A stretch of 59,602 nt of DNA, filler included, from Jimgerdemannia flammicorona (taxonomy: Eukaryota): assembly GCA_003990765.1 (NCBI GenBank). It is 2 parts of 2 records of this genome, joined end to end, with 100 filler letters (N's around TTAATTAATTAA, not from the genome) between each part and the next. Parts side by side here need not be neighbours in the genome. Positions count along the whole stretch, not along the records: positions 29,873 to 59,602 come from RBNJ01000473.1; 1 more part is not named here. The stretch is one strand, 5' to 3'. Shown here one piece after another: positions 15,201-58,219 of the stretch. Within the stretch, counting starts at the first letter, position 1; every line of letters begins with the position of its first letter. The translations under genes and the position numbers were made by a program. The notes under the pieces were generated by a model. The model saw only the letters and a program-made list of their open reading frames with translations. It did not search any database and had not been told where the DNA came from.

Positions 15201-18200
15201 AATATAAGTTAGATAATATAGCCAGAATAGATATTGCCATAGTTAAAAAAACTATACTCAAACTCTAGACAATTATCTTACTTATAACTAATCTGGAAAT
15301 AATCATTCCAAAGAGATTCTCAAGACAAGAAGCAGTCTAGCTAGAAGTGAGATTACTATTGAAAGAGAAGTTATTGATTCAAATTATATTAGAAAAATAT
15401 TACTCATTATTAGAAATTACAACTCTATAATTCTATTTTCAATCAAGAAGAAGAATTGACTGATACAGATATTAATCTTTCTGGTTCTTCAGCTAAAGAT
15501 TACAGAAGTCAAGAAGTTAGAGAAAATAGAAAGAGAAAAAAAAGAATTTAGATCTACTAAAAGAAGAGTATTTGCTAGTATATATCAAAATTACTGAACT
15601 AAATTACAAAAAGGAGAAAACTATAAATAAGTATAGCTGTATCATCAAAAATGAATTTCTACTTAAGAAGAAACTCAAGAAGATACTCTATAAATTTGAG
15701 GATATTTTCGCTATAGATTTCAAAGATATTAAGAGAAAGACTCTATACTATAACTATAATACAAATATAGAAGATATCAAACTAATTTATCAAAAAGTAA
15801 GACCAATTCTATTAATCAACTGTAAATGGCTCAGAGAAGAAATCAAGTAAATAAAAGAAACCAGTATTATTAAAGAAGTCAGTAGTCCTTGGACTTCACT
15901 AGTTATACTAACTTTGAAGAAAGAAAGCAAGCTAAGAGAATTTACTCTAAGACTCTGTACTGATTATAGAAAGCTCAACCTAGTTACCAAGAAGAATTAC
16001 TAATCACTATCACTCATCAGCAATATCTTTATAACTCTGAGAGATAAAGTACAGTATTATAGTATTTGTATTTATATATATTCAGAATTCTATCAAATTG
16101 ATCTTACAGAAGTAGTAAGTGAAAAGTTAGTCTTCATCACTCTAGATAGAACTTATATCTATCTATAAATACTATTTAAAATATATAATATACCAGTAAA
16201 CTTCTAATAAATAATAAATAAAATCTTTCACTATAATATGAAAAGATAGATATATAATAGTTTATATGGATAATATTATTATTTATAGTAAGATATCTGA
16301 AGAATATCTGTAGCATATCTAGCAAATAATAGAAAAGCTAAGAAATCATAGCTTATATATATTAAGTCTAAGAAGTACAAATTTGTAGAAATTAAGATCT
16401 CTTATCTTGATTACATTATTAATCAGAATAGAATACATATAGACTCTCTCAAGATTCAAGCAGTAACAGCATATCCAAGGCCCACTATCATTACTGAAGT
16501 CTAAGCTTTTATAGAATTAGTTTCATACTATTATAGATTTATTAAAAAATTCTCTAATATGTATTATAGATCCTATATTATAGGTCCTATCTATAAACTC
16601 AATAAGAAAGATATCAAATTTCAGTAAACTGACAGATAACAGAAAGTATTCAATAAGCTCAAGATCAGACTGATCTAAGTATCTATCCTCAGAAGATCAG
16701 ATTAGACTCAGGAATTTATTCTATAAACAGATGTAAGTATATAAAAACTAAGAGCAGTTCTGGTCTAAAAAGATAAAGTAAAGTATATCATTATATATCT
16801 CAGCTGAGAGACCTGAGAAGCTAAAAAGAAATATGAATTCTATAAGTTAGAATATCTTATAGTCATCTGGACTATAGAAAAGTTTTACTACTATCTTACT
16901 AGAAGATACTTTATTATCTAGACAGACTACTCAGCTCTTACCTGACTACTGATTATTAGGTAATCTAAAGAAATCTATAACAGATAGATTATGAAGTTGC
17001 AAGCCTATGATATAACTATCATATATTACTCTGAAAGAATTAATATCAATATAGATACTCTCTTACAGAAACTCAAAGGACTTCTAACTAGTAAACTGAT
17101 CAAAAATAAGAAGCTTTACTATGAAATTATCATTTACTTAGAATAGTAAAAGATATCCCAACATCTAGAAGAATAAATATAAATGATTATTAATAGAATA
17201 TAGAAATAATTTAAGATTAATAAAAAAATACTAAAGAAAGAAAAGCTACTAGTCATATCTGAATATAAAAAAGAGTAAGTAATAATATCAGTATATATAT
17301 AAACTTAGCTATCTAAGAGAAACTAATATCTACAATAAAACAAAAAGAATAATATAGTAGTCAGAAATAGAGGAAGATATTAGATAATTTATTAAGGCCT
17401 ATAATAAATACCAAAAATAGAAATAAGACAAATAAAATCAGATTCTAGAATTAGTATATATAGAATCAGTATTTTATATATATATCATAATAAATATAAT
17501 TAGCTCTCTACTCTTGACTTTGACTGATAATCAATATATCATTATCATTATAGACCTTTTTACAAAATAGATAGAAGTAGGATCTCTTAAAGAGGCCAAT
17601 ATATAGTCAATACTAATTTCTTCTATAAAGAAATTATCTGCCAATTCAAGACTCCAATATAAGTAACTATAGATAGAGAAACAAAATTTATAAATCAGTT
17701 CTTTAAGGTTTTCTACAAGAAGTATAAGATTCAGCACATCCAGACTATAGCTTATTACTCTCAGAGAAATGGACAAGTAGAAAAAACAAATAAAACTCTT
17801 AAGAAATATCATACCTAATCAATAAAGTAATATTACAGCCCTCAAGATTATCAGTACTATGTATATAATGAGCTATAGAAAGATAGTAGTATTCTACTAA
17901 GCTACCAACTATGAAAGAATTCTTTAGATAGTATTCAGAGTATAGTACAGATATATTTATCATAAATCTCATATTTTAAGATCTACTAGAATTGGACCAA
18001 GTTTCAGAAATACTTCAAATTAAGATAGCTACTAAATTTGAAGTCAGAAATGAGAAAAGAAGATTGGATTAGAGAATGTTAGCTCTCTTATACTCAGATT
18101 ACCATTGCTAAGAGAATGTATAAGTTATTCAAAAAGAATAAACCAGTCCTAGTCTATCTCTAAGGAGTAGTTTCAGAAGACTTTGGATATATCAGAAGAT

Positions 18201-18791
18201 AATATTAAAAGAATATAATGATATAAATTATATGGTACAAGAAAATTCAACTAATTGAAGCTTGAGAGTTTGAATAGAATATTTTAGAGATAAATTATCT
18301 ATTTAGGTAAAAGTTGTGATAATTGATCTAAATTAGTAATATGAATCAGAAAAATAGACATTTGATCATAGTATTTGAATCTGATTCCCAAATATAATAT
18401 AGCTTTACAAATAGCAATTATTTCAGTAATGTAAAAAACTTTAACAACTGCTAAAAATTCTGCAGATATTAAAATATTTGCAATTATCAAAATCCTAGCA
18501 GATGTTAAAAAGATTCAACACTTACAAAGAGTGACTCACAGGAATTATAGTCATAACTTAGCCATCTTATAGCTAGTAAACTTATATAAATATTCCAATA
18601 TCTAGAATGAATAAACCTCAGATCAAAATAGTTCAAAGCAAAGAGAAAGCAAGAGAACTAGTAAGCCTGCAGGCAGATATACTTCAAACTCACCCACTTC
18701 TGCATCCCAAGGACTCTGCAGAGTCAAAGAAGATTAAGTTTTCAAGATACAGAAATCTGTACTTACACAGTTACGCATCCACTACATTACA
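12210..18791 (+). mobile_element. Heavily mutated Ty3/Gypsy LTR retrotransposon (element 1): LTR-gag-PR-dUTPase-RT-RH-IN-accessory ORF-LTR
   Basis: Direct repeats ~12210-12570 and ~18430-18791 ending TTACA; PBS-like tract after the 5' LTR; decayed motifs collinear with element 2 (dUTPase ~15150-15570, RT DYRKLN and YMDN ~15960-16280, integrase GQVEKTNKTLK ~17770). Confidence 0.88.
13758..14148. mobile_element. Non-autonomous hAT-type MITE (391 bp) inserted in gag of element 1
   Basis: Exact 8-bp TSD GTCAGAAT (13750-13757 and 14149-14156); TIRs TAGTGCT...AGCACTA; subterminal AATCA/AATTC pentamers; internal hairpin. Removing it restores collinearity with element 3 gag. Confidence 0.9.
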
Positions 18792-27400: not shown

Positions 27401-28293
27401 CGCCGTCGCGGGCTGTCCAAAGACAGATCGGACCTACGTGGCGACATCTTTGGTCGCGACGGGTGTTCTGCGAGCGAGCCGATAGAAGTGACGGTATCTT
27501 GGTTGAGGTCGAAAAGCGAGCGGCTCAACGGTCTTCCCAGCTTGTCATGATCAGCAGGCGAGTCTCCGTCGCACTCCGACTCGGAATCTTCCTTGTGGGT
27601 GTGAAGATGCAACTCGGAGTGCGTCCGGCTGAGGGGTCTTGGCCACGCACCCTCGGGCCTCGACACGTGGTGCTTCAGGCACGTCGTGCACGTCGAGTGG
27701 TCCTCGATCCCGGCGTCCTGGAGCTTGGTCAGCAACTCCAGGTATCCCTTGCTCATCTGCACGCTTCCGTGCCTGGCCTCGAGCAAGAACTTCTCGTTGC
27801 GTAAGCTCAACGCCAGCGAGCTGAGGTGCTGTGCGAGGCGGCCGATGGTCTTGGTAATGTCCTTGAAATCCGAGGGGCGGACGTATCCGTACGAGATCTC
27901 GTAACGCGCCTCGCGATCGGCAATGAGCACCTTGGCCATGGCCTTGCGCATGTTGGAGCTGGCCTCCTCGACAACGGAGTTGGGCAGATCGAGGCGGTCC
28001 GGATCCAGCAGGAAGGCTGAGGTAGTTAGGTTGAGCAGGTTACGGATCTCGGAGAGGGACTCGTCGACGGCACGGCCAAGCCCCTGCGAGGCAGACTCGC
28101 GCCAGATGAGGATGTTGATGAAAAGGGCGACGATATTTCCGATGGAGAGGGGACAGACCACGTCGAAGACATATTTGCCTGAGAAGGTTGTATTGTCGAC
28201 ATTGGTGGTGAGGGAGAAGACCATGATGAAGGTGGCCATGATGCCGGAGAGATTGAACCTGAACAATTTTTGCAAATGTTATATAAAGGAGAG

Positions 28294-28325
<32 letters not shown>

Positions 28326-29513
28326 GCGATTCAAAAGCGTGATTCAATTAGACACTACGCATAAACTGAATTAGTTACCTTGGATACTTTGCCCACACAT
28401 ACGTAACGAAGAACGATCCCGTCAACAGAAAGACCACCAGAATGACCCTCCCAGCATGATCGCCATATTGTAAATACTTTGCATTATACGCCACGCTCGC
28501 CCCCACCCCCGCCAACGATATGGTCATCCCGACCAGGATGCCAAACAGGCCCACGAACGCAGCCTCGACCTGCGCTCCGACAGTCCTAGCTGGGTGATTA
28601 TATACAAGCGACACGGCGCTCATGGCGGCGTATGGCCCAACCCACTGCTGCACGGGCGGGATGAGAGTGAACAAGGATGCGATAAGTGTGGCGAAGACAG
28701 CCTTGTGGATGCGGTGTTGGACGCGGGGGTGGAGAGTGGGTTTGAAATAGTCCAAGATCTGCCTGAGAATGGGTGCGAACTGGAGAATGCGGCGGGTTGG
28801 AGACGGGGACGAGGACGGGGACTGAGGCGGGGACGGGGAGGGCTCCCAAGGGGGAATGCCTTCGTCGATGGCGATCTGGACGTCCTCATTAAGAGTAGGT
28901 GAGGTGCTGGTGCGGGGTTCGTCGGAGAAGGTCACGTGGTGTGGAAGGTTATTCGTTTTGTCGTTGCCGCCGGGGGTCTCGAAGACGGTCATGTCGAAGA
29001 AGCTGGAGGGAATAATGGAGACAAATAATGCGTATAAAATTGATTCCGCGAGGCCGTAGGAAAACGATTGATTAGAGGGAGAGTCTTTTTGCGCCAAGAT
29101 GTAAAGACTATCCAACTAAACGATCTTGGAAAACCGCCATGATGGGTTCATCAAATGCTAGAAGAAAATGAGTTCTCCTACCCTTCTCGATTTTCCTCCA
29201 TATCAAAGTGATCCTCCAACGCCTTTGCATGATGTGCCAACGGACTGCCGGGGAGAGTAGAACTTCTCGCAGCTTGTTGGGTTACGTGATCTAACCATCC
29301 CTTTCCCACAGTGTGGGTGGGTGTGGACGGTCCTGGAGATGGGAGGGGAGTAGAATGGGGGGTAGCGTGATAGCTGCCGTAGTAGAGGTTGGGCCGAAAA
29401 CACAATTTCCCCGGGCGGTGTGTGCCCTTGTTGAGCTCGTCCTGAAACGACCATCTCGCTGGCTCGCTGGCGCCGGCATTGTCTGCATCACCGTGGCCGG
29501 CCTCTTCGCTCAT
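24447..29513 (-). CDS. FUSC/aromatic acid exporter (ArAE_2, Bre4-like) multi-pass membrane protein, multi-exon
   Basis: KAVFATLIASLFTLIP, HPARTVGAQVEA, EARYEISYG, REELFLVFNFMFSLREVAREL, KFAVKMA, EGFLRVGGTVFGG, VWPFVARHQLRK, EPRLKAPFP, LPPYFPSARIAR. The last exons are uncertain (an alternative in-frame stop lies at 24826). Confidence 0.85.
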
Positions 29514-29772: not shown

Positions 29773-29872
29773 NNNNNNNNNNNNNNNNNNNNNNNNNNNN
29801 NNNNNNNNNNNNNNNNTTAATTAATTAANNNNNNNNNNNNNNNNNNNNNNNNNNNNNNNNNNNNNNNNNNNN
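29773..29872. other. Artificial assembly spacer: N44-TTAATTAATTAA-N44
   Basis: Total length 100 nt, with a central six-frame stop linker. Confidence 0.95.
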
Positions 29873-32074
29873 CATTGGCTGGTGATTCAAGACGAATCCC
29901 TCACTTTCAAGCTGAAAAACGAACAACCCCCACAACAACTACCCTGACTACAAGAGTCACCCCTGCAAGAATTCAAGACAAGATGGAAATGCATCCCCCC
30001 ACATTCTATGGATATACTACTAAAGAGTCAATCCTGACCTTCATTGAAGACTTTGAACAATTCACCACTGTACGAGACCTTGGTGTGGATGCTCAATTGG
30101 CCCTTCTACCAGTCAGCCTCAGAGGACCTGCCAGAGACAAGTTCAATGCAGCCACCATTGCTGATGCTGGTGCAGTCAAACTTGCCAACATGAAGGCCTT
30201 CCTCAGAACAACATATTATACTGAAGAGATCAAGCAAGCTCTCAAGGATCAACTCAATACTATCTGCCAGGGACTTAGTGAAGATCTCAACTCATTCTAT
30301 ACCTGAATCTGCCACCAGATTGTCTTGGCTGGCTATGATAACTGCCTCAAGGAACAAATAGTGGATTCAACCTTCCTCAAAGAAGTTCACCCTGAAATTG
30401 CCCTAGCAATCCAGTCTACCCCAGCTGTACTGACCCTTGATCAGAAAGTTGTCTTTGCACAGAGATATTAAACTGCCAGACACTCTGCCAAACACTCAAT
30501 GGAGAAAATAACTAGCATCAAGACGGAGCCATCAAAGCCAACTAGTATCTTACCTGCCACAGTTGTAAACAGATAACCAACCCCACCTACCCCCAAGACA
30601 GCCAAAGCTGACCCAGTGGAAGAACTTGCCAAGCAGTTTACCGAGATGACTGCATACCTTGGTGATATTGTTAGAGAAGTCCGAAGCACTAACAGGAGAT
30701 CAGTGCAGAGATTTGCAGCTGCTATAGAAGAATACAATATCACATGCTTCAGATGTAGAGAAGAAGGCCACTATGCAAAGAGTTGCATAACCGAAATGAG
30801 ATACAAAGCCCAACCAAGCAATGCTAGCAGAACCAGAGAACAAACCAATGCAGTAGTCATCAAGGAGATTGGTGACACTGATGATGAAGAATACTATGAG
30901 GAGCTCGAATTCTACCCTGCTACTGAAGGTACCAGAACCCAGTCCAAGCCCTATGACAAGAAGAGCAACAGCAAGCCAGTTGGAAGACCAAAGAAGACTC
31001 CAGCTGTCACTATTCAAAGCAAGACCCAACTTGAGAAGATTGATCAAGACATAGAGTTAGATGAAGCCACCTGCCAAATTATCGAAGGCACTACTCCAGT
31101 CTCAGGAGAAAGCGAGAGCAAGAAGGAACAGAAGCTGCACAAGACCAAGATCCACCAGTATGATATCTATAAGGACCTCAAGGAACAGAAGGTCAATGCC
31201 ACTTTTGGACAGCTAGCTGAAGTCCCTGCCTTCAGACAGCAGTTGAGAGTAGGACTTGCAACTACTGTCAAGAATCAAGAGTACAAGATTGTAGAAGCTC
31301 ACAATACACAAGAAGAATCTGAGAACTCAGGTGAAGAATCCGAAGACCAGCACAAGACATCAGCCTATACCCCCTACCAGATTGAAGACTGTATCTTTGA
31401 TGCCATCATTGATACTGGTGCTGGAGAATACCTCATGAGTAAGAAGGCAATTGACCACCTAGGTTGGAACATTGAAGAATTCACCAAGATGGTCTATGTC
31501 ACAGCAGATGGTACACGAGCTACCCCCCTTGGCAAAATCTGAGAAGTCCCCATCAAGATAGGAGGAGCTACCATCTCAGTAGATGTGATTGTTACAAGTG
31601 CCACCAACTATAATATCCTCATTGGCAACCAATGGCTTCACAAGGCCAAGGCCATCATTGACCTCAATGCCCAGAAGATGTAGATCAACTACAGAGGAAG
31701 AAAGATACAAGTTTCTATCAATGTCCACAAAGGAGTCCTGCCAGACATGGAGGAAGGAGATAAAGAAGACACAGAGGTCTTTATGTACTTAGTGAATAAG
31801 AACAAGAACAAGACACCCAAGCTCACAGATGAGCAGTGGTATAACAAGATCATTGATGAGTATGCCCCTCAAGGAAGATGCCCCCATGGTACTAGAATGT
31901 ACTGCTCTGAACATCTGAATGACTGCTGGTCCTGTATCAGTGAAGTCAGGAAAATCCACCAATAGAAATATGAGCAAGAAGCTGCTGAAGCAAAAAGGAA
32001 AGCCAAAGAAGATGACCAGCCCCCAGAGCTTCAAGCTGATAGTGATGATGAGGAGGAACAAGAATCAGACATCA

Positions 32075-32492
32075 CCCTCAAGGTCAAGAAGTTTCACCCT
32101 GAAGTCAAGATCTCAGAATATAAGACTGAAGGAGCCATAGGAATGGACCTTACCAGCATCTAAGATGCTACTCTTAAACCACAGACCACCACCCTACTTG
32201 GCACTGGAATTGGAGTCAAGTTGCCAGAAAACCATGCCGGAATTATCAAGACCAGAAGCAGTCTGGCCAAAAGCGAAATCTCAGTTGAAGGAGGAGTAAT
32301 TGACCCTGATTACACTGGTGAGATTTTTCTTATAGTCAGAAATTACAACCACACCACCCCCTTCAAAGTCAAGAAGCATGACAGGATTGGCCAGATGCTG
32401 ATCTATAAAATCAAGAAGCCCAAGATCATAGAAGCCACTGAACTTATCAAGACCAAGAGAGGAGATCAAGGCTTTGGATCTACTGGAAGAGG
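32075..32492 (+). pseudogene. Retroelement-encoded dUTPase between protease and RT
   Basis: GAIGMDL, TGIGVKLP, RSSLA, GGVIDPDYTGEI, DRIGQM, RGDQGFGSTG (trimeric dUTPase motifs 1-5); one CAA>TAA stop. Confidence 0.93.
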
Positions 32493-35400
32493 AGCCTATG
32501 CCATCACCAAGATTACTGAACTTGAGCACAAGAAAGATGAGGACCAGAACAAGCACACATATACTATTGGAGAAAACTTTCCTCTGGAGGAACAACTTCT
32601 CAAGATCCTGTACCAGAACGAAGGAGTACTTGCTACAGACTTTAGGGATATCCACAATCAAGAACCCAAGTACTATCACGAAGTTGACACTGGTGATACC
32701 AAGCCTATCTATCAGAAAGTCAGACCGATACCACCTGCCTACAGAGAGTGGCTGTGAGCTGAACTCAAGGAAATGGAAGAAGCCAGAATTATCAAGCAAG
32801 CTATCAGCCCCTGGGCCTCACCCATTGTTCTCACCCTAAAGAAAGGAAGTAAGCCTGGAGAGTTTGCACCAAGACTCTATATTGATTACAGGAAACTCAA
32901 TGCCATCACCAAGAAGAATAGGCAGCCCTTGCCAAATATTCAAGAAATTCTTACCACCCTTAGAAGTGAAGCCAAATACTACACCACCTTGGATCTGTTC
33001 TCAGGCTTCCATCAGATCAGTCTCACTCAAGATGCCAGTGAGAAATCAGCCTTCATTATACCTGATGCCACCTATATCTATCTATGAATGCCATTTGGAA
33101 TGTACAATGCCCCAGCAAGTTTCTAGTGAATGATGAACAGAGTCTTCAGCAATGAGATTGGAAAATAGCTCTTTGTCTATGTTGATGATGTGATCATCTT
33201 CAGCAACACTGTACGGGAACATATCAATCACATACAGCTAGCCCTCAAGAGGCTCAAGAAGCATGGCCTCTATATCAAGCCTAAGAAATGCAAGTTTGTA
33301 GCTCAAGAAATCGCCTACCTAGGACACCTCATCAACCAGACTGGAATCCACACAGACCCCATGAAGATCGAGGCTGTTGCAGCCTACCCAAGACCCAGAA
33401 CAACTACAGAAGTTCACGTCTTCCTTGAACTGGTCAGCTACTACAGAAGATTCATCAAAGGATACTCCAACATTGCAGCACCTATCTATGAGCTACTGAA
33501 GAAGGAGACCAAATTTGAATGGACCAAGGAGTACTAAGAAATCTTCAATAAACTCAAGACCAGGTTGACCCAAGCACTCATCCTCAGAAGACCAGACTGG
33601 AACCTAGAATTCATCCTGCAGACAGATGCGAGTGCTATAGAACTTGGAGCAGTCCTAGCTCAGAAGAAAGATGGATATGAATATATCATCTCCTATGCAA
33701 GCTGAGGTACCCATGGAGTAGAACAGAACTATGAGTCATGCAAGCTTGAATGCTTAGTGGTAGTTTGGGGAGTAGACAAGTTCCACTACTATCTAGCCGG
33801 AAAACACTTTACCATTCAAATGGACCATTCTGCTCTTGCCTGGCTATTCCACACTCTGAACCCCAAAGGAATATATACCAGATGGATCTATAGGCTGCAA
33901 GAGTATGACTGTACTGTTAAGCACCACTCAGGAAAGACCAACACTAATATCGATGCACTCTTAAGGACACCCCAAAACACCCCCATCAAGACTACTCAAC
34001 ATGAATAAGGAGCTATACTATGGATTAATCAGCTACCTTGGGCAGCGGAAGATGTCCAACCACCTCGAACCCTGGACAATTACCATCATCAACTAGACTT
34101 GGAAATAGTTTGAATTAGACAACACTACACTCAGAAAAGGAGGAAAGCTAGTAATACCTGAACACAAGAAGTATCAAGTAATGAAGGAAGTATATGAGCA
34201 AGGATACTTAGGAGGAATCAACATATATGACAAGGCAAAAAGAACCATGTAGTGGTCCAAGATGGAAGGAGACCTGTGCCAATTTGTCAAAGAGTGTGAC
34301 AAGTGCCAAAAACAGAAACAAGATCAGCAAGACCAGGCACCTGGATCATCAAGAATTGAGCCTATCCCCTTCCACCACATCACAATGGATATCATTGGAC
34401 TACTACCAGTAACACTATTAGGAAACCGCTATATTATAGTTATTGTAGACCTCTTCACCAAATGGATAGAGGCAGGAGCATTACAAGAAGCCAATGCCCT
34501 CTCTATAGCCGACTTCTTACACCGAGAAATCATCTGCCACTATAAGATACCAAAGAAAATTACAACAGACCGTGGTACAGAATTTGTCAATAGATTCCAT
34601 GAGATAATATATCAGAAATACAAGATCTAGTACATCAAGACCACCGTGTACCACCCTCAAGGAAATGGACAGACAGAGAGAACCAACAAGACCCTCAAGA
34701 ACATCCTAGCAAAGATCTCAGAGACATATGAGAATTGGGATAACTATCTCCCAACTGCCCTCTCTATCCTACGAGATATACGGTCACAGAGCACACATTT
34801 TACCCCAAGAGAGCTGCTCTTCAGAGAAGAAGATTCTGATGGAACCTCAGCCATAAATCTAGACCTAACTTGGAGATAGGTTGATGCAGAAATCCAGAGA
34901 CTACACCAAATCAGGAAGAAGGCTGAAGATTATATCACCAAGTCACAAGTACTGACAAGGAAGAATGCAGAAAAGAATCACAAGGCTCTAAAACCCATCC
35001 GAATCAGAGAAAAGGTTCTACTGTATTGAAATATGGTAGAAGCCTCATAGTCGCGAAAACTGGAGCCTAAATGGGAAGGACCCTTCTACATGTAAGATAT
35101 CAAGGGAACTACCTTCTGGTTTAGAAAAATCTCAGGGACCATACTGTCTACCATGGTACATAGGAACAGGCTCAAGAAGTACCATGAACCTATACAAGAG
35201 AAGCAAAACATGATGACTGCCCATGAGGTTCTAGTCCACGAATCATAACAGCATGTCCCATGACCAGCAGGCTATCTGTCTGGACCATTCTCTAAGGGAT
35301 ATAGTACTGGCAACTACTCATCCATGAGACTTTTGCAGTCAGAGGAGTTCAAACCATCAACTGATTGGTCAAGATCAGAATCAGGCCCTTGCTCTATATG

Positions 35401-35803
35401 AAGGGAGCAACCCTTCACCATCACACCAAAATACAAAGAGAAGATGCCAGCCCATAAATACCAGTTTTCGACCCCTTGCCAGAGGTTATGAGATCAGCAA
35501 ATTTTTCAAGACTGGACTAATGAATAAGAATGCTCAGGAAGATCCTTATTCAGGAGGAAGATGTAATGGTAACTCCAGAATGATGATATTAGCACAGAAG
35601 ACAGCCTTTCCTTGCAAGCTACCAGATCGGAGCACAAGAAGATCATATGGTATATGAGATGAGCAATGATGACCAACCATGAGTCATTGTGACCACAGTA
35701 CAAGCATCTTGAAGAATATAAAAGAAGGATCAAGGAACCATAGTAGCAGCAACCAATAAGAACCACCAACCCCAAAATAGCTCAAAGACTTACCACAAAT
35801 GAA

Positions 35804-36640
35804 ATGCCTGCTGCCTACCAAACCTCAAGGTCAAGGAATCACTAAGGTATCTCGGTCAAGGAAAGGATGTTCCAAGACATCAGAAGAGCCATGAGGACCT
35901 GCTTGAGAAGGACTCCTAGTGTCAACTTGGATACTGCAGACCCTTATCACTTCATTCTCTACTACCATGAAATGGAAACAAGGATTACCATTGCTACCAA
36001 ATGCCTCCAAATGTAGCAGGAGTATGAAATAGGAAACCTCCTCTACCAGGAGTTCCCACAAGCCAGCACCCAAGAGCTACAAGATGCCACTTCCATAGAT
36101 ATACGTGAAACAAGGACAGCTAAGAAGATCTATCAGATCTTCAGGCATGCACCATGGTCGATCCCCAACTTGGAGTATGTCAGAGTCTCAGACTTCAGAG
36201 ACCTATCATCCTGCTGTATCAATGCACTAGAAGCCAGGGTGGCTACAGAAGCCTGGTCCACTATCACCCTCAACAGTGAAGAAGTAGAAGACTTCTGGCA
36301 CCCTATCCTTCAGGACAACCCAGACCAATTCCTCCAAAGATTGATCTCAGTATTCCAAGACCCAAGTATCCAGGTCAGACCTCCCCAAGACCCCACATTT
36401 GTTCTCTACTTTGTGGAAGAGAACCCTATAGACTAGAGAGCTCCAGGTCTTATTCCCGATTTTCCTGCCACAGCCGAACATAATGATGTCATTGGTGATG
36501 ACATCATCCCATGCGACATACCCAAAGCATGCAAAGAATGTGAAATGCACGACCTGCATGATGAATTCGTGGATCTCATCTCCTTCAGTAATGATGATGA
36601 TGAGGATGAAGCTCCTATAGTCCTAAACTTTCTGCTCTGA
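35804..36640 (+). pseudogene. Accessory ORF (~278 codons) between integrase and the 3' LTR of element 2
   Basis: One continuous frame with only three TAA/TAG stops, each explicable by C>T; contains EYEIGNLL...TAKKIYQIF...IPNLEYVRVSDFRDLS and an acidic tail. Confidence 0.7.
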
Positions 36641-37050
36641 GTTCTGTGTTACACTGGATAATACCAGCACCAGTATTCTCATATAACACTGGATAATGCC
36701 AGCACTGGCATTTTGATGTGATACCAAATAATGCCAGTCCTGGAACTTAGTAGTTTTAGTTATTGGAATTTATATTTAGCTTTATATCTTTGCAACTATT
36801 GAATTATATTTTGTATAAATATCCCTCTTATTTCCTCTGAAATAAAGTAAGTTCTGGTTTCACTTATACACACTTCCTTGCAAGCAATCTAAGAGATAAC
36901 AAGACAGTTAAAGATAAGAAGTTTGAGGACTATAAGACCTTGGGAAGGCACTCTAATAAGAACTTGCTTATAACAACTTGAGTTAGTCTAAGAGATATAC
37001 CTTGAAGAGAATCTGGCATATTTGAAGGACTCAGCGACCACTATGTGACA

Positions 37051-40000
37051 CTATATAAACTATCATCTATCTTCTCATATTATAGCAGAATATTTTATTC
37101 ATCATTTATTGGAAACTTGCTGATATATTGTACATTCCAAATAATATTCATAGATAGACATAGGTTCTATCTGGGGTGATGAAGGCTGATTTCCCACTTA
37201 CTGTTTCTGTGAGTCTGATTTGGTGGAATTCTGAGTATAGATTCAAGGTACTGTAATACTGTACTTTATCTTCCAGAGTTATAAGGATGTCACTGATAAG
37301 GGGCAGTGGTTAGTGATCCTTCTTGGTGACTATGTTGAGCTTTCTGTAATCAATACAGAGTCTTGGAGTAAATTTTCCAGACTTGCTTTCTTTCTTTAGA
37401 ACTAGTATAACTGGTGAATATCAGGGGCTACTGGCCTCCTTAATGATACTAGCTTCTTCTATCTGCTTGATTTCTTCTCTGAGCCACTCTTGGTAGGTTA
37501 GTAGGACAGGTCTTGCCTTCTGGTAAATTGGTTCAGTATCTTTAGTATCTATATTATAATAGTAGTATAGAGTCTTTCTTTTGATATCTTTGAAGTCTAT
37601 AGCAAGAACATCCTCAAATTTGTAGAGTATTTTCTTAAGCTCCATCTTGAGTGGGAATTTATTTCTAATAGTATAATTGTACTTATTTATAATTTTCTCC
37701 TTCTTATACTTCAGCTTAATAATCTTGATACTGGTAAATACTTCTCTTTCTATAGATCTGAATTCTTTCTTTTCTCTCTCTGTTTTCTCTGGCTTCTTAA
37801 CTTTTATAATCTTTAGTTATAGGATTGGAAAGATCAGTATCTGTGCCAACTGGTCCTTCTTCTTAACTGGAAATGATATTGTAGAATTATAGTTCCTAGT
37901 AATGAGTAGGATTTCTCCAGTATTCTAAATTGATAACTTTTCCTTCAATCATAATTTCACTCTTGGCCAGACTGCTTCTTGTCTTAAGGATCCTGATATA
38001 ATCCTTTGGGATTGTTATCTCCAGGCCAGTTGCAAGTAGAGTGATTATCTGAGGTTTGAGTATAGTTTTCTCTTTTTTTTTATATAGTCACTTGGACTCT
38101 GCCATTTATTACCAATCTATTCATAATTATACATCATCTCCTCCACCTATCCGATTCCCATAGGGGAGCCCCTCTCTGCATTATTGTGAATAAAGGCCAC
38201 CTTCTCACCCACTACCCCCACCCTCCCCCAACTCTGCCTACTAATCTTCTCCACTAAGCAGCACCTTTGACCACCCTGCAGCCCCCAACCAAGCCACCAG
38301 CCTGTCAAGGTGTCTTCCATAAGGCCATGTCAATACAACAACTGGTCCCCTAAGCCAAGTCTCCTCTCATCTTCAAAAACAAATGGTCAGTGACTGGTTA
38401 ACCCCACTCAAATCGCCAAAACCCAGTCTAAGATAAGCTACTCCTTTCTCACCCCCCCCCCACCAGTCTATTCCTCAGATCCTCCCACTGACCCTACATA
38501 CCATTGCTCCAATATACTATCCCCAAGTGGTCCCCAACAGTCTGCCAGAAGTCACTAAGTATCTTATACTCCCCTAGCCAATGTTTAGACATCTGCACAT
38601 ATCCCCCTTTCTATCCTACATTGTGGCACTCCTTACAGTCAAAGCAACCCCCCTTGATAAGATGACTCAGCAGAAATTGAGCATCACATTCCTCCTCAGC
38701 ATGTGCCACCAGACTATCCAGTACTTTGGCAGCATCCACCTCCTCACCTCAGCACTCCAGGCCCATATACTATACTAGTTCCATTCTTCACCAATACTGA
38801 CTCCCTGCCATCCACTAGACTACAGATCTTAGCCTTGTCTCCTTTGGCAGTCTATTCCATCACCAATGTCAAACTCATTAAGAGAATGCCTCCCAACAAC
38901 ACTTGGTCCCATCTCTACATCACCTGATCTCAAGCCATCTCTTCTTCATTACTCTGTCAATAAATTCTAATGCAGTATGCCCCCTCTGCTACTCCCCACC
39001 AGAAGCCTTTATATTGCAATTGTGCTGTCTTCTGAAGCCCCACCATTAAAAAGAGATCACCTATCAAGCCTCTTGGTGAGGTTCTCATCTCCCAGACCTT
39101 CTGTATTAGGGAAACCCAACTGCCTCCTCTCAATTCCACCACTCTCTTCAACCACCACACTCTCAAGTAGTATAGCTACTTCAGAAAGTCAACCAGCCTA
39201 AGTTCTTCTCTTGCTACTGGTAAAGATAAGACCTCCCAACTGATCTGACCCCTTCTTCCAGCTCAGATCCACTCCTTGGCTAGCTTCAACAATCACTTCA
39301 CTACCCAGGCTGGAAAGTCCAGATAATAAGTCAGATACCACAACTTTGGTAGTCAATAGATATTCAATCAAGACACACCCTGCTAGAGATAAATAGTGAC
39401 CCCCTCAACTCTACAGAACCTCCCCCAGATTCCAACCCTCTGCTCTCACCAAAGTCTAGGCAGTACTTACCCATATACTGATAAATAAATACCCAAGTAC
39501 TGCACTACCTTATCAGTAGAGATGATTGTTCCAATGATGTCCCCACTCACCAGATCATTGCCCAATACCATTGTTTCACACTTGTGCCAATTGAGTTTGG
39601 CATCAGAGTTCTCCTCATACTACTCTACCATCTTCTTGAGCTCCTCAACATCAGCAATAGATCTCAGGCCAACAACCATGTCATCTGCAAAGGCCCCAAC
39701 TTTCCACCCAATTCCAAAAATAGAGAGCTCTATTATCTTTCACCTGATTCTGTCCATTAGGGGCTCCAGAGAAAGGGCATATAGAATGGGGGACAGTGGG
39801 TCTCCCTGAGGTACTCTCCTACTCAGGGGAAATGATACTCCTCTATATCTATTACAAATGAGTACCACCCTACTCCTTTCCAGTAGGCTGATTATTGCTG
39901 ACTGAAATGGTTGTGGTACCCCAGTCCTATCCAATACTTTTGCCAGCCAGACTCACCACATCCAGTCATAAGCCTTCTCTTGATCCAAGAAGACCAATCA

Positions 40001-43000
40001 CCCATCTAGTCCACAGGCTCATGCCTCTTCAATAACTCCATACATCCAAGCTGTACCATCCCTAATGAGCTGGCCTCCTACAAAGTTCCTCTGCTCAATG
40101 CCCAGAACTTGCTGGGCCACCTTCTGTAGCCATACAACCACTACCTTAGTCACCAACTTTCTGTACATATCCAGCAGCATAATTGGCCACCAGTTCTTCC
40201 AGTCCTCATACCTTTCTTTATTCTTATAAAGCAGTATCACCAGCCCCAGATCCTGTTCCCCTACCTATCTCTCTGTCTATAATATAAAGTCACACAATGC
40301 TGTCATCTCACTCAGAACTCCTGGGACTCCCACCATCTTCTTCCAGAAGTCCCAGGGCAGACCATCCTCCCCAGGTGCTGTGCCTGGAGTTGTCACAGCA
40401 AGAACCTAGTGAATCTCCTCCTTCTGTACTGATAACACCAAGTCACCCAGCCCATCTGCTTGAGGAGGGTGCCAATTCTTCAATACCTAGTCAATAGCAG
40501 CAGTATCTGCCCCCCCCCTCCTCCTCACTCCACAATCTACTCCATTGCTCCTTTAGTGAACCAAGGATGTCTTATATACCATGCACCAGTATACTATCAG
40601 AGTCAATCACCCTCTCTCACTATTGCTGTACCCTTCTCACCTGAAGGGCCCTCATGAGATACTTAGAGGGTCTCTCCCCTTCCTCCAACCATTGCCAATG
40701 AAGCTATACTGCCAAGCTCTGCACTCTTGCCTTCTCCTCATCCCTCAGTACTTGTTGTAATTCTCCAATCTCCTTTTTTGCCCTCATCAATCTCCAATCC
40801 TCTCTCCCCTCCACTACTATAGCTAGCCCTGCCCAATCCTCCAAAAGTCTGGTCAGTCTAACAGAAGCCCATCTCACCTATCACCTCCTCTACTTCCCAG
40901 CTTCTCTACTAGCCTCACTCCAGTAAACCTTGGCCATTACTTTCATCCTCATCTACCTAATACCAACTGGGGTACCTTCCTGCCTCCAGCTCTCCACCCT
41001 CAGTTGAATGTCTTCTACCCATATGTTCCACTGAATCCCATCATCTAGTAATGAGGAATTGAGGTGCCAATGTCCAGGCCCATCCCTACTTCCCCCAAAA
41101 TGTCCCTGCCCTAACAGCCCTCAATGATCTGACCAAGGACACCATTCCACTTCCAGTGACTTCCAAACATCCAATCCTCAGCAGCTGATCATCAGCATCT
41201 AGTTAATCCTTGTCCCCAGACCCCTTGCTCAGTATATGTATACCCTCCTATCTCCCCAATTCTCCCTACCCACATCTATCAAAGCACTTAGCCTTTCCAG
41301 ATCCTCTCATACCACTAACCCTCCACTCCTATTCTCAGCTCTCCTTCCACCATCTATTCTATTCACTCATGTATCCTGAACCATATTGAAGTCACCACCA
41401 AGCACATCCACTCCAGCCTCTGCAAGGACCCCACTCTCCTGGAGACCCTTCATCCAATCCACATGCTCACTCTGCACAACAGAGTAGTAACAGGAGCCCA
41501 CTGTGACCAGCTCTCAGCCTATATGTATCCACTCTCCTCAGACCAATCTTTCCCTCTAGCTCCTCATCTCTTGTATCTTCCCTCAACTCTTTTGGACCAG
41601 AATTCCAACCTTGTCCTTCCAAACTACCTCACCTCTCCATTCCTTTGTCCATTCCAGCCTATCCAAATCATCCTCACATCTAACATCCTGCAAGAGGAAG
41701 AGATTGGCCTCCAATCCTTTCAGCTAAGTAAAAATATTCCTATATTGAGAAGTGCCCTGTAACCCATTTACATTCAAAGAGAAAATGTTGATTGTACTAT
41801 TTATAATGAAATACAGTATGTTATCCAGTCTATCTCTACTACTCCATGTTTACCTCTTTCTATGCCATATCCAGATTATGTTCTGCAGTCACTGCTTCCT
41901 CTTCAGTCCTCTGAGCCTCCAGTCCAGCCAATAGCTCATTCATCTCTCCATCTGTCTTCTCCTCAAACTTCTCATGGTACTCCAGACAGGCCTCCTGCCA
42001 GAGCTGTAATCTATGATACTTGTCCCAACAGTATTTAGCCCTCTCACCAGCAACTCCTGCTAGCTCAGCCTCCCACTCCTTATCTACCTCATACTCTTCC
42101 TCCTCCAGATATACCATAAGGATTTCTGTCTTCAATATCAGCTCTATCTCATCTCCTTACAGGATCCTCACCCAATGCTCATTACTCATTACTCTCAAGT
42201 CTATCTCCCCCAACTCTTCAGCTACTAGATTATTCATCATTCTGTATATCCAAAGTAGGTTCCCCACCTCCTTCCCCCCAGGAGTCACTGGTCTCCCTCC
42301 ATCCAACATCATGGTATTAGCTTCTGTACTCACAGACTTATCTCACACCTCTAGGATATCTACCAGTTCATCCTCTCCAACTGCCACCACTTGTCCCCCA
42401 TTTGCCACCTTAGGAACTCCAAACTGCACTTGCTGGGCCCCCCTCATTGGCACATCCTCTACCACCCTACTTTAGGAAGCTAGACCTCACCTGATAAGAG
42501 GAGTAGGGGTAGGTGATCTCTTCCAGTTATCCTCCCAGACCTCAAATATACCATCAGTATATGGATCCTTGCTAGTCACTTTTCTGTCCTCCCTTGCCAC
42601 CTTCTCTGTGCTCCTGCCATCCTTGTTGGCCCAGACACTCGCTTTGGCACCCCCTGCCTCTACCATTCTATCCATATCCTTCTGAGGTCCATCTTCCAGC
42701 TTAGCCAACAGCTTCTTTTAATACTTATGCTCCTGAGCTCTTTCCTACTGCCCTTTGTCCATTCTAATCTGCTTTCCATCTACTACCTCCAAGTGTGTTG
42801 ATTCTACAAAAGCCTTCTAAGCCTTTACCTGCTGCTCCACTACACTACTCAGCTCTTTCAATGTTTCTAACAAATTCTCTTCCTCCTCCTCACTTTCTTT
42901 CACCCTCATCACCTTACACAAGATTGCCCCCCAGACTATCACTAATGGCCAGTCTCTTATCTTCCCAGTAGCCTTCTTCCCAGCCAGCCAAATCTGTACA

Positions 43001-46000
43001 TCAACATCCCTAGTCCTAAGTGAGGTCCCTTTCCAGACCCTGAAGCTGATGTCCACCATCTTGTCATACTCTACTATAACCTCCTCAACTCTCCTTCTTG
43101 TCTCCACCACTGTTACCATGGGCACTCCTTTCACTAGCAGTTGTACTATCCTGGGATCCTATCTCAGGCAGTACACCATAGGGACACATACTTCCCCAAT
43201 AGTCAGACCAATCTTCAGCACCTCCTCCAAAGGCTCAGCCTCCTCAAAGCCCACTTTCACTCTCTCTAGTCCCTTCAGAAACTTTACTGATACTGCTTCA
43301 GTCACCTGCTTAGTGATTAGCCCTAGTACCATTTTTGCCATCACTGCTAGGCCTCAGAAGCATAGTATAACTGCAAATACCAAGATTGATTTTTTGAGTA
43401 ATGGGGCTACTGCCAGGCCCATCACACTATCTGTCAAGTCCCCCTGCCCTCTAAGCCCCTGTCACTCAGCTATGCTATCAGTAGTTATATCTGGATTTTT
43501 TTCCAGATTGGCAGTCCTGTCACCATCAGCTGTCATACTTACCCCAGCCACTACTTCCCTAGCTCTACTACTCTCACTGCCAAGAGCTACTTCCCTGTAA
43601 ACTGCTGTCTTCTCCATCTCCTTGCCTTTCTTCAGCCATCTCTCCAGCCCTGATGTCTACTGTCTCTCCTTCACTATCTCTGCAAAGCTCACCCTCTCAG
43701 ACTCTTGTCCTCCACCACTACTTCCTCTCCCTCCTCATCCTCCTGCCAGCAGCCCCCTCATACCTCCCCTCAGGCCAGGACCTCTCCCCACCTGCTGCCA
43801 GTCAAATGTACTAGGACTGCCCTGCCCAGTATATACCCCAGATTGCTTGCTGTTTGCCATTGCCTTAATACCTTTCTCTAAAAAATAACTTGAAAGTGTG
43901 TTATAAAAGTGTGTATAATATAAATTGTAGCTGAGAAAGGTGACAGTGTCCTATACTGTGGTAATATCTATTCTAGCTACATTTTCTGACTTATATTCTG
44001 ATAGGACTATATCAGGATAAATCTTCCAAATATTGATCTTGATTTCCTCTTTATCATCACTGTCTTCAAGGAGAGCTAGTAGTTTGTCATCCTCTTCTTC
44101 TTTCATTTTCTTTTCTTCTCTTATCTATTTCTCAAGAGCCTTCTCTCTTCTTTAGTAGTAGATCTCCTTGATTTTGCTAGTATACTGGTAATACTTATTG
44201 ATATACTCCATACAGTACATTTGGATCCTATGGAGACAGACTTCTTGTAGTACATATCCTTCTATAATCTTCTTGTACTAGTCTTCTTCACTCATCTATC
44301 TGATTTTCTTCTTCTTTTTCTGAGTTATCACTATATAGACTTTCTCTTGTTTACTCTCTTCTTTCTTTATCTCAGACAGGACTCCTTTGTTGATATTGAT
44401 AGAAATTTACAACTTTTGTCTATGGTAGATAATCTGTATCTTCTGAGCATTCAGATCAATTACTGCCTTGGTCTTGTAAAGCCATTGATTGCTGATAAGA
44501 ATATCATAGTTAGTTGTATTGATCATAATTATATCCACTGAAATGATTGCTCCTCCAAACTTGATGAGAATATCTCAGATCTTTCCTAGAGATATAGCTC
44601 TTATACTATCTGCTGTGACAAATACCAATTTGGTTGCTTTTTAGACTTCTCAATCTAGGCAGTCTGCTGCTTTCTTACTGAGGAGGTATTATCCTACTCC
44701 TGTATCAATAATAGCCTCAAAGACTCTATCCTTGATTTGACAGATTATATAGACAGAGGTCTTATAGTTGTCTTCACTTTCTTCTCCTGAGTCCTCTTAA
44801 ATATTGTTAGTCTCAGTTATCTTCCATCCTTGCTCCTTGGTTGTTTGATGAGTCTGAATCTTATTTACTGTCTAAATGTGGAAATTTCTACTAGCTGGCC
44901 AAAAATTGTATTGATTTTTTATTAACTAAGGTCCTTGAAGATATCATACTTGAAGTCTTGGTTTTGTGAAGCTTTTTCTTCTTTTCTCCTTTACTGGCTG
45001 GAGTGGTTCCTTAGATGATATCTTAAACAGTCTGTTTTAGCTCCATATCTTAATCTGTTTTTTCATGTAGTAGTCTCTATCTACTTTTTCACAGAGTTTT
45101 TCTTGGGTCTCTCTGGTGATCTCTTATAGGGTTGTTTACAGACATCTTTTCTGATAGTCTCAGTAGAGTAGACTTCCCATTTCTTTTCATCTGATTCTCC
45201 AATCTCCTTAAAGGTGATGATATTGATCTATTTCTTATTTTGAGTAACATTGCTTGGCTATGCCTTATACTTGGTTTCACTTATATATTTATATGAGTAG
45301 TAGCCCTCTTTTCTATAAGTATAACAGATATCTCTCTTCTTGTCTGAGGTAGTGGCAAATTTCTGAACTGAGTGGTGGTCTCTTCTTTTAATTTCCTTTA
45401 CCACATCTCTTAGATAGGCTGTCATTTTGGCAAACTTCTTGATAAGTTCCTCTATGAGATTACTATTTCTCTATTATTTAGTAGCTCTTAGTTGAGGTGT
45501 GTTTCAATTGATCATTATGATAGAGATTACACTAGTTACCTTGAGTACTTTGATTCTGACTTCAGTAACTCTCTCTATTGTATAGTCTTGTAAGTATCTG
45601 GCTATCTAGTATCACTGAGCATAGGTGACCTTCTGTATCAGATCTAGAACTATTAGTGATGAGTGGATGGCCAGAGCTATCTCTAGGTAGATTTCTTTCT
45701 TAAAGATTACTTCAGCTACTTAATCCCTAATAGTGGCAGTATAATTTGTAAGGATTATTTGATATTGGATTCTGGTGTAGAATGTGTTTGGATCCTTACT
45801 CATTCCTTGATATATTGTGTTGAGCTAATCCTTCAATATCTGCTTGATCTTATCTATGTAGTATATGGCTCAGAGCCAGGTCTTCTATACTGCTAGCATA
45901 GCATCATCATCATTTTCTATATGGGTTGCAGCTGTGAATACTGCTCTTACTGGTTCTCAGAGACTGAAGAGTATGAGGATTACTTGCTGCCTTACTATCA

Positions 46001-48639: not shown

Positions 48640-48929
48640 TATAAGTGCACAACCTCTAAGCCACCAAAATCACATGTCACCCTCTGAACAAGCCACTGAA
48701 ATCACATGTGACCTCCAAACAAATCTGGAAATTATCTGCAAGATCATGAAGCTGAGTCAAACCAAAGTTACAGTATACAAAGCTGAGTCAATATGAAGTC
48801 ACAGAACACAAGATTTATACAAATAGAATCTTACCAATCAGGACCAAATGTATATATACTGAGCACCGAGATGTATCAAAACAGAGAACCAAAACAAATA
48901 ACAATCATAACTTCTGAACATATACAAAC

Positions 48930-50026
48930 ATGATCACTGAGATCTACAACTGCATCCGTGCTGACATTTGGAATGTTATTGTCAACCAAGCCACACTCCC
49001 TCTGCCCCTTATGAATATCTATAGCCTAGCACTCCTCTACTTCATGGAAACCAATAGAATGTCCTGAACATACTTAATGAGGCCCACCGAATCAGACAAA
49101 TCTCAAGCTACTATCAGATCGGCCACCTTCTGGAAGACATGATTGAACACCACTATGATACAGATATTACCCAGATGTCTCAACACTAGAAACTCATTGC
49201 TCACAAACACCAAGAACTCTTCTATAAGTATAGCACCTTTATTTCTCATCTCCAAGTTACTATCAGTGAAATGGTTGCTACCCTATCTTATGGCCAAATC
49301 GACAACATGATATAAGAACTCAACCACAAGTATCTTGAGTATATCCAGACTACAGACAGAACCTTCTTGCACCCAGATGACTACATCCTGCAAATGCCTC
49401 AAGTCAGATATACTATGAAGAACATCTATGATATAATCTACTTCAATGAAGATAAAGCAGAAGACAATGACCTCTCTGACACTGACATGACCTCAAGCCA
49501 AGGATCTCTGCCAACCCTGATAATACTGCCAACCTTGCCAATGAACTTACAATAGTTCATAACCACATACAAGACCTATTGGGACAATGATCACTAATAT
49601 GAATACTAACCCACATTCACTCCCGATTACTTCAACTATAATGAAGAGACTGGAGAATACAACCTATACCTCCAGACAACTCTTGAGATTGAACCAACCA
49701 CTCTACCACCCAAGTATGAGTGACATGAACCATAGCTGCTAGCTTACTACAACCCTGTGACTCATAGTGCTATAATCTATAGAAGGTATGCAGATAGCAA
49801 ATCTGATAAAAGCGAAGATGATACACCCCTCCTTCACCTACTAACTCTATATCCAGCATATGAGACAGATGATACTATTCTGTAGAATGGTGATGAAGTC
49901 CCAATATATTATTACCTTAGCGAATAAGGAGAAGTAATCTGCAAACTACTCTTCCTAGATAACTACTTCATCAGAGATAATACCATCAATGGTAATATTA
50001 TTGAAGACTACCCAGATAGCATCTAA
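48930..50026 (+). pseudogene. ~365-codon ORF inside the 5' LTR of element 4
   Basis: Aligns with the 3' LTR copy; stops explicable by C>T/G>A; one 1-nt deletion not shared with the other copy. Confidence 0.7.
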
Positions 50027-52724: not shown

Positions 52725-53140
52725 AACTCTGGACTTTGTCAAGTTAAGGCAAACTGCCAAGGCCCCAATCAAAGAAAGTCAAAAAGCAGCTAGATATGAT
52801 CTGTATACAGCTGAAGAAGCTACAGTCTCCAACCAAGAAGTCAAGCAAGTCTACATAGGAATCAGCATCCAAATTCCTGAAGGATATATTGGAAGAATAT
52901 GCTGTCACAGCAGCCTAGCATTGAAAGAACTCTCAGTAGAAGGAGGAGTCATTGATGAGAATTATACAGGCAAAATTATTGTCCTCATTCAAAACCATAG
53001 TTGAATACCCTTCAAGATCTCCATTGGTTTCTGCATTGCTCAGATCCTATTTGAGAAAATTGAGTCAACTCTGACAGTCAAGGAAGTCTCTAAACTACTA
53101 CTTACTATCTAAGGATCCAAAGAATTTAGCTCATCAAACA
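52725..53140 (+). pseudogene. Retroelement dUTPase located upstream of protease in element 4
   Basis: AARYDL, GISIQIPEGYIGRI, SSLA, GGVIDENYTGKI, IAQILF, decayed RG..GFGSS. Confidence 0.9.
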
Positions 53141-57120: not shown

Positions 57121-58219
57121 ATGACCACCAAGATCTATAACTACATCCATGCTGACATTTGGAATATCATTGTCAACTGAGCCACACCCCCTCTGCCCCT
57201 CATGAATATCCATAGCCTAGCACCCCTCTACTTTATAGAAGCCTAATGGAATGCTCTGAACATGCTTAATGAGACCCACTGAATTAGACAAATCTCAAGC
57301 TACTATCAGATCAGCTATCTCCTGAAAGATATGGTCAAACACTACCATAATACAGACATTACTCAGATATCTCAATACCAGAAACTCATTATTCACAAAT
57401 ACTGAGAACTCTTCTATGAGTACAGTACCTTTATTCTCTGTCTCCGAGTTACTACTAGCAAAATGGTTACTATACTGTTCTATGGCCAAATTGATGACAT
57501 GATACAAGAACTCAACCACAAGTATCTTGAGTATGTCCAGACTACAGATATAACCTTCCCACATCCTGATGACCACATCCTACAAATGCCTCAAGTTGAA
57601 TATGCTATGAAGGATGTCTATGATATAATTCACTTTGATGAAGATGAAGCAGAAGACAATGACCCCTCTGATGCCGACATGACCTCAAGCCAAGGATCTC
57701 TGCTAACTCTGATAATACTGCCAACCTTGCCAATGAACTTACAATAGTTCATAACCACCTATGAGACCTATTGGGACAATGACCACTGGCACAAATACTA
57801 ATCTGCATTTACTCCTGATTACTTCAACTACAATAAAGAGACTGGAGAACACAACCTGTACCTCCAGACAACCCTTGAGATTGAACCAACCACTCCACCA
57901 CCCAAGTATGAGTGACATGAACCACAGCTGCCAGCTTACTATAACCCTGCGATTCATAGTGCTGTAACCTATAGAAGATATGTAGACAGTGAATCTGATG
58001 AAAGCAAAAGATGATGTACCCCTCCTTCACTCACCAACTCCATACCCAGCATATGAGACAGATGATACTATCCTATGGGATAGTAACAAAGTCTCAATAT
58101 ATTATTACCTCAGTGAACAAGGAGAAGTAATCCATGAACTACTCTTCCTAGATGACTACTTCATCAGAGATGATGCCATTAATGGTGATATTATTGAAGA
58201 CTACCCAGATAGTGTCTAA
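57121..58219 (+). pseudogene. ~365-codon ORF inside the 3' LTR of element 4
   Basis: MTTKIYNYIHADIW...SYYQI.YLL...ELFYEY...QIDDMIQEL...PPPKY...LPAYY...IIEDYPDSV*; one 1-nt insertion near 58005 that is absent from the 5' copy. Confidence 0.72.

Follow-up and report, generated by a model that had tools for sequence, protein, structure and literature searches.

A protein family encoded in or beside the LTRs of Ty3/Gypsy retrotransposons in Jimgerdemannia flammicorona, with a possible role in LTR regulation

Results

An additional ORF shared by Ty3/Gypsy lineages

Ty3/Gypsy retrotransposons of Jimgerdemannia flammicorona carry an additional open reading frame (ORF) whose products, judged from sequence comparisons, form one unnamed family: the ORFs of elements 1, 2, and 4 (E1, E2, and E4), those of a fourth carrier family of the same genome (E5), and 17 metagenomic proteins. 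The ORF lies in U3 in E2, E4, and E5 and overlaps the end of pol in E1 and in the metagenomic locus L171, i.e., it is a conserved additional ORF 3′ of pol in gag-PR-RT-RH-IN elements.

The analyzed window, i.e., the whole stretch of 59,602 nucleotides, consists of two contigs of the 231-Mb genome, with an N gap at 29773-29872, and contains four Ty3/Gypsy copies (E1 to E4):

~12.1-18.8 kb, plus strand: E1, Ty3/Gypsy with short LTRs
Ending at ~12571: E1 5′ LTR
18315..18791, plus strand: E1 3′ LTR, ~470 bp, no ORF inside
29874-37050, plus strand: E2, 5′ LTR gone in the N gap
29874..35250, plus strand: E2 internal region, with gag (CCHC), protease, dUTPase, RT, RNase H, and integrase
46468-37053, minus strand: E3, an E1-family copy (75-77% DNA identity), RT-truncated
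48642-58804, plus strand: E4, Ty3/Gypsy with 2-kb LTRs
48642-50615, plus strand: E4 5′ LTR
56833-58804, plus strand: E4 3′ LTR

Since E3 is truncated exactly at the end of the E2 LTR (37050), E2 may have inserted into it, in which case the other half of E3 would be expected past the gap. A decayed LINE-like element (38070-43955, minus strand; endonuclease-/RT-like motifs by eye), with a poly(A)-like end at ~38072, sits within E3, and this insertion explains the strong GC skew of the interval. The host genes seen in the window include a methyltransferase-domain ORF (23278-23841) and a transporter-like gene with ArAE_2_N (26728-29115), a fungal family; this gene and the CpG-stripped repeats point to a fungal source. 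Two GC-normal stretches flanking E1 (4620-6024 and 19098-20218) display an inverted similarity of 74-81% and perhaps represent a duplicated host gene. Across the window, the ratio of observed to expected CpG was 0.00-0.23 in most element bins vs ~1 in genes, a depletion indicating that host pressure on the elements is real.

In E2, the ORF starts with an ATG at 35804 and ends with a TGA at 36638-40. The sequence-only reading that preceded this analysis had placed it downstream of the integrase; the ORF itself stands, while its position had to be corrected, as it lies wholly inside the LTR (35562-37050). In the full elements L162 and L167 both LTRs contain it, and at five further loci (L157-159, L166, and L169) the ORF-bearing LTR is followed by gag. 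The window copy is decayed, with three internal stops (35843, 36014, and 36434); many genomic copies are open, with a natural open length of 267-285 aa. The features of this region are as follows:

35552..35561, plus strand: polypurine tract before the E2 LTR
35562..37050, plus strand: E2 3′ LTR, ~1.5 kb, TGT...ACA, whole ORF within U3
35680..35686, plus strand: TGAGTCA, upstream of the TATAAAA box of the ORF
35717..35723, plus strand: TATAAAA box, predicted dedicated promoter, 87 nt 5′ of the ORF ATG and followed by an A/C-rich leader
35804..36640, plus strand: E2 accessory ORF, 278 codons and stop, with a predicted helical core (~aa 18-150) and an acidic tail
36660..36712, plus strand: two 18-bp near-palindromic units (36660-77 and 36695-712), candidate operator
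36814, plus strand: second (genomic) TATA box of the LTR, downstream of the ORF
36841 (to 36846), plus strand: AATAAA of the LTR, downstream of the ORF

The 18-bp units are repeated in tandem downstream of the ORF stop and ahead of the genomic TATA box, with 0-5 units per copy across 33 copies and two units in 22 of these. No family motif was found in the 300-bp spacer from E2 pol to the LTR, where stops occur at shared places in the copies listed.

Counterparts in the window were located in E1 and in both LTRs of E4, the latter as had been proposed:

17819..18276, plus strand: E1 homologue, heavily decayed, located directly behind pol and not inside the LTR
48930..50026, plus strand: E4 homologue in the 5′ LTR, frameshifted and with stops
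57121..58219, plus strand: E4 homologue in the 3′ LTR

The motifs quoted from sequence inspection do exist, i.e., YEIGNLL (36023) and TAKKIYQIF (36116) in E2, YQIGHLL (49112) and IAHK (49196) in E4, and IAKRMYKLF (18104) in E1. In the decayed E1 counterpart, the true equivalent of YEIGNLL is FQKYFKLR*LL, which is in frame with IAKRMYKLF; FEVRN lies in another frame. Better-kept E1 copies encode ~152 aa, with the ATG overlapping the last pol codons; the window copy lacks the integrase C-terminus (17782-17819) and hence the TATA-like box of other E1 copies. Open E4 copies encode 365 aa, and the E5 ORF lies within a 2076-bp LTR. First-look searches of the genome yielded 6030 (E2), 5461 (E5), 4624 (E4), and 1748 (E1) candidates, which are not copy numbers; 150 candidates each were scored for E2, E4, and E1. 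In one E5 pol (L339, contig coordinates 8303-6897, G000:C2935), protease and dUTPase are separated by a Cys/His-rich insert several hundred residues long.

A metagenome context scan recovered one clade with at least two loci, the only clade for which genomic context outside this genome is known. There, L171 encodes dUTPase, RT, RNase H, and integrase, and behind these a family member of the 156-aa type, with its ATG overlapping the end of pol in the manner of E1; the integrase-ORF junction of L172 is the same. The RT identity noted for L171/L172 is ~42%. A dUTPase was present in 5/5 ORF carriers with pol in view, carriers alone being compared.

The ORFs form one family under purifying selection

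The shared domain covers ~130 aa and begins ~55 residues ahead of the YEIG motif. Direct comparisons of the window ORFs gave low scores: E2 vs E4 was borderline in BLASTP (E=0.031), and HHalign aligned all pairs of E1, E2, and E4 in one register with probabilities of only 1-9% (E2-E4, 4%). However, the real HHalign score was reached by 0/100 column shuffles for E1-E2 and for E2-E4, and by 3/100 for E1-E4. That the similarity, first noted by eye, exceeds chance was also indicated by leave-family-out HMMs, which scored E4, E2, and E1 at 59.6, 62.6, and 69.0 bits, against 9.8, 10.1, and 13.4 bits for the best of 2000 shuffles, a test that is partly circular because the outside members came from a profile holding all three families. 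In addition, E5 bridges E1 and E2 at the level of single sequences (pairwise E2-E5, 1.8e-21; E1-E5, 2.5e-9).

Searched against 1.84 billion representatives, the joint profile matched 22 proteins at E<=0.001: four near the query families, 17 distant, unnamed, and aligned over the core, and one false match (P0028, a repetitive 1553-aa protein), which was dropped. The 10 matched clusters that we looked up held ENA, JGI, or SRC sequences only, with "hypothetical protein" as the best name. The suggested resemblance to expanded hypothetical families of arbuscular mycorrhizal fungi was not recovered, as none of the 28 hits or 10 clusters held an NCBI/UniRef-sourced match, at a sensitivity too low to exclude it. 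Consistent with the initial description of the family as unannotated, no Pfam family matched E2, E4, hits P0008-P0028, or 29 members at E<=0.001; the best PHROGs match had E=0.004, in single members, and the best match among PDB sequences E=0.38. No relatives were found in viral contigs or a phage collection. ESM Atlas linked the family to unnamed clusters at 0.86, a lead only; a row at 0.94 (157/256 features in common) suggested a closterovirus coat identity, which we rejected. The open literature, to which our search was confined (subscription papers and Repbase lay outside its scope), yielded no description of the family.

We next consider coding status. Because CpG decay had to be avoided, omega was computed from transversions alone. 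In the ORF frame it ranged over 0.04-0.36 for E4, 0.21-0.28 for E1, and 0.32-0.55 for E2, the weakest case (p 0.01-0.03 for values of 0.36-0.58; frame +1 of E2 gave 0.66, p=0.07), with few events for E5, while other frames were mostly near or above 1. As copies were mostly ranked by protein similarity, these estimates are biased downward; ranking-free controls gave 0.24 for E4 (p=4e-7), 0.51 for E1 (p=0.0015, 28 DNA-selected copies), and 0.54 for the E2 N-terminus (p=0.13). Overall, purifying selection acts on the family in the ORF frame, weakly within E2, so that the coding status of E2 rests more on its relatives in metagenomes, which are intact at 58-86% identity.

That the three ORFs are noncoding, or that they encode helical proteins unrelated to one another, is highly improbable. 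The borderline BLASTP match and direct HHalign probabilities below 9% would fit such a scenario, but the leave-family-out scores of 60-69 bits, the single-sequence bridge through E5, the purifying selection specific to the ORF frame, and the intact homologue after the L171 integrase all argue against it.

A TATA-like box precedes the ORF

A TATA-like box was found 62-89 nt 5′ of the ATG in 5/5 carriers examined. The distance from box to ATG is 83-88 nt in 35/36 E2 copies, 62 nt in 15/15 E5 copies, and, counting the six commonest patterns, 74-80 nt in at least 40/49 E4 copies; the leaders that follow the box in these three families are 77-90% A+C. In E1, TATAAAA is formed by the integrase codons for D-I-K in 21/21 copies, at a distance of 86 nt from the ATG in most, and no other TATAAAA was present in ~2.95 kb of pol (3/3 copies checked). 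The E2 integrase provides a synonymous control: it has the same peptide and no TATAAAA (0/8 copies with the box). In L171 and L172 the box again falls in integrase codons, with a spacing of 89 nt to the ATG in the case of L171. An extra ATG in the predicted leader of 14/36 E2 copies is a point against the regulator reading discussed below.

The U3 of a 5′ LTR is absent from genomic RNA, so the E2 ORF needs another expression route. We infer a dedicated promoter moving along with the ORF: a separate short mRNA would start from the TATA-like box, and for the LTR-borne forms it could begin and finish within one LTR, which would make solo LTRs expression cassettes. TGAGTCA upstream of the E2 ORF box is presumably an AP-1/Gcn4-like site. 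Separately, E4 LTRs (e.g., L061-L072) have two TGACTCAG/CGACTCAG sites between the ORF stop and TATA, which we take to be AP-1-like. Host bZIP factors may drive the E4 and E2 promoters through such sites.

ORF and RT phylogenies conflict

RT identity was 66-71% between E1 and E2, 38-43% between E2 and E5, and 34-40% between E4 and the rest. The integrase of E4, which the sequence-only reading called a distinct chromovirus, has an end that appears chromodomain-like by eye. The ORF tree instead grouped E2 with E5 (support 97/94), and these two have a common C-terminal extension (170-aa match). In AU tests with long branches present, and with the E2+E5 group chosen after the ORF scores were known, the ORF data rejected a grouping of E1+E2 (p=0.001), and the RT data rejected one of E2+E5 (p=0.0003). 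E1 and E5 also have in common a 62-bp TATA/polyA block (87%). These patterns suggest that the ORF module has likely moved between lineages, LTR-module exchange being the simplest reading of the conflict, with old paralogy and differential loss of the ORF as a possible alternative. The exchange postulated from sequence inspection therefore finds support for E2 and E5 against E1, but not between E2 and E4, whose ORFs are no closer to each other than to other family members.

Predicted fold, charge, and LTR repeats

The E2 core was modeled by AlphaFold as all-helical, with seven helices (pLDDT 82, pTM 0.77), in line with the helical module anticipated earlier; the E4 model (11 rows) was poor (pLDDT 55). 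Foldseek against PDB and BFVD returned no match for the E2 core at E<=0.001, an absence that does not show a new fold. The best Z scores in a VIA structure comparison were 3.8 and 3.3, and a VirB core aligned to the E2 model with Z 3.1 (rmsd 5.8, 79 aligned). In a comparison with tri-helical bundles, the modeled helices span residues 30-66, 72-78, and 83-96; the last is the putative recognition helix, and its position 91 is K/R in 29/31 rows.

The core weakly resembles two prokaryotic and phage domains, DUF3102 (PF11300) and DUF1016_N (PF17761), presumably HTH/ParB-like, through a helix-EIG..L-loop-helix-A.R..F register. This lead came from the motif and was tested afterwards. HHalign gave P=15.6% and E=0.0017 for DUF3102 and P=11% and E=0.0027 for DUF1016_N, over 61-72 columns covering the EIG..L / A.R..F block; 0/60 shuffles reached either score, reversed controls were near 0, and a match between the two domains themselves reached 84%. 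Of the top 30 BFVD rows, three are DUF3102 models (best TMq 0.46 at E 1.6, all E>=1). Set against this likeness are the low HHalign values of 11-16% and the lack of a Pfam match in 29 members: for PF11300, 0/29 members scored above the curated cut-off and no match was found in the genome itself.

The core is not net basic (K+R / D+E of 19/19 in E2, 13/18 in E4, and 13/20 in E5), and the tails are acidic (4/31, 9/47, and 3/32, respectively); the E1 and L171 versions lack a long acidic tail and have little beyond the core. As stated in the sequence-only reading, there is no env-like transmembrane segment: the maximum 19-residue Kyte-Doolittle mean was 0.19-0.92 in 5/5 proteins. Invariant columns comprise G, A, R, F, and hydrophobic positions without a catalytic set, and the counter-deamination role once suggested found no support. 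In the E5 LTR, a tandem array unlike that of E2 lies downstream of the ORF and ahead of the genomic TATA box; no long tandem array was found in E1 and E4 LTRs. [CT]AGCA, a motif picked post hoc, is 2-3x commoner in the U3 of E1, E2, E4, and E5 than in dinucleotide shuffles; for single copies the figure was 13-28/500 shuffles in three families.

Discussion

A candidate DNA-binding regulator of the LTR

By analogy with Tas and VANC, our leading but tentative reading is that the ORF encodes a DNA-binding regulator of its own LTR, acting as activator or anti-silencer. The core would adopt a helix-turn-helix-type fold, the protein would bind repeats of its own element's LTR, and the bound protein would switch the LTR on or shield it from silencing, activation being presumed over repression. 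The TATA-like box, the helical fold, the DUF3102/DUF1016_N lead, the basic residue of the putative recognition helix, the acidic tails, and the repeat arrays of E2 and E5 count as support; the weak structural link, the non-basic core, the short tails of E1 and L171, the missing arrays of E1 and E4, and the weak selection in E2 count against it. We regard as doubtful the more elaborate version, i.e., a transcription factor with sequence specificity that descends from a prokaryotic HTH of the DUF3102/DUF1016 type, has its own promoter, and travels as a cassette from lineage to lineage and between U3 and the end of pol. Such a factor would turn thousands of solo LTRs into trans-acting regulators, as a Tas circuit in the style of complex retroviruses or through VANC-style anti-silencing.

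The same fold evidence would serve a DNA-binding repressor or competitor produced from many solo LTRs, for control of the element's own copy number or to interfere with other, rival families. The palindromic units that precede the genomic TATA box could serve as operators, the E1 and L171 proteins barely exceed the core, and E1 and E5 have the 62-bp TATA/polyA block in common at 87%. Nonetheless, the acidic, aromatic tails of 3/5 carriers suggest activation, and the thousands of candidates per family imply that carriers were strongly amplified; we consider repression quite unlikely. An RNA-binding, CERV- or Rev-like factor that exports or stabilizes unspliced genomic RNA is also unlikely, if less so. 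The precedent is the CERV protein of Cer1, a novel LTR-retrotransposon protein reported to be required for gRNA export (PMC10309623), and such a role would suit a helical core with basic patches. Yet CERV is described as made from a spliced mRNA, whereas the present ORF has its own TATA-like box, the weak profile links lead to DUF3102 and DUF1016_N instead, and acidic tails would be unexpected for an export factor.

Least probable among the functional alternatives is a protein-protein inhibitor of host restriction (methyltransferase, RNAi, or deaminase) working with the dUTPase, along the lines of the sequence-only reading. The CpG depletion of element DNA and the dUTPase in 5/5 carriers agree with it, but carriers were mutated regardless, no sequence likeness to a deaminase or glycosylase inhibitor was seen, and dUTPase was already known in fungal Gypsy elements, in varied positions (PMC2864245). 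Taken together, we favor a DNA-binding regulator, whether activator, anti-silencer or, with the low probability given above, repressor, over RNA export and over inhibition of a host enzyme; anti-silencing is possible as one form of such regulation.

At minimum, the data define an unnamed protein family, unmatched in Pfam and PDB, that is a marker of many fungal LTRs and of "hypothetical proteins" in soil metagenomes. To our knowledge, descriptions of fungal Gypsy elements usually comprise gag-pol alone, with dependence on host factors for transcription, and solo LTRs are normally regarded as inert. If the regulator reading is true, a regulator that the element encodes and expresses from its own promoter could help explain amplification in a CpG-mutating genome, and solo LTRs would be able to encode protein.

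Comparison with known systems

ORFs in or overlapping U3 include HIV nef and MMTV sag, which are immune modulators of animal retroviruses; the likeness is limited to coding sequence in U3, and no homology is expected. The family counts among the additional ORFs in the broad sense and is not env-like. Plant LTR retrotransposons are reported to carry sense aORFs (PMC7264820), and ORF3 types are common to several lineages of bdelloid elements, which also have dUTPase (PMC5408684). Both parallel the present family in being conserved extra ORFs 3′ of pol, in most copies and across distant lineages, and both differ in that the proteins encoded between pol and LTR are of env-like, GDSL, or DEDDy type, whereas the family described here is soluble and helical, is found after pol and in U3, and has its own TATA-like box.

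VANC, the anti-silencing protein of Arabidopsis VANDALs, offers a parallel and not a demonstrated homologue; VANDALs are DNA transposons, whereas the carriers here are Ty3/Gypsy elements. The likeness consists in a TE-encoded accessory protein, a CpG-attacking host, and family-specific noncoding tandem repeats in E2 and E5, VANC targets likewise forming tandem repeats (PMC5735166). Foamy virus Tas, which binds the LTR and an internal promoter (PMC4929722), is also a 3′ accessory gene product of a retroelement, and the TATA-like box in the integrase codons of E1 and L171 may parallel the foamy internal promoter. Unlike Tas/Bel1, to which we found no sequence or structure link, the ORF is carried by env-less elements of a probably fungal host and, in three families, lies with its predicted promoter wholly in U3. 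As far as tested a member of neither group, the ORF protein would work most like Tas or VANC.
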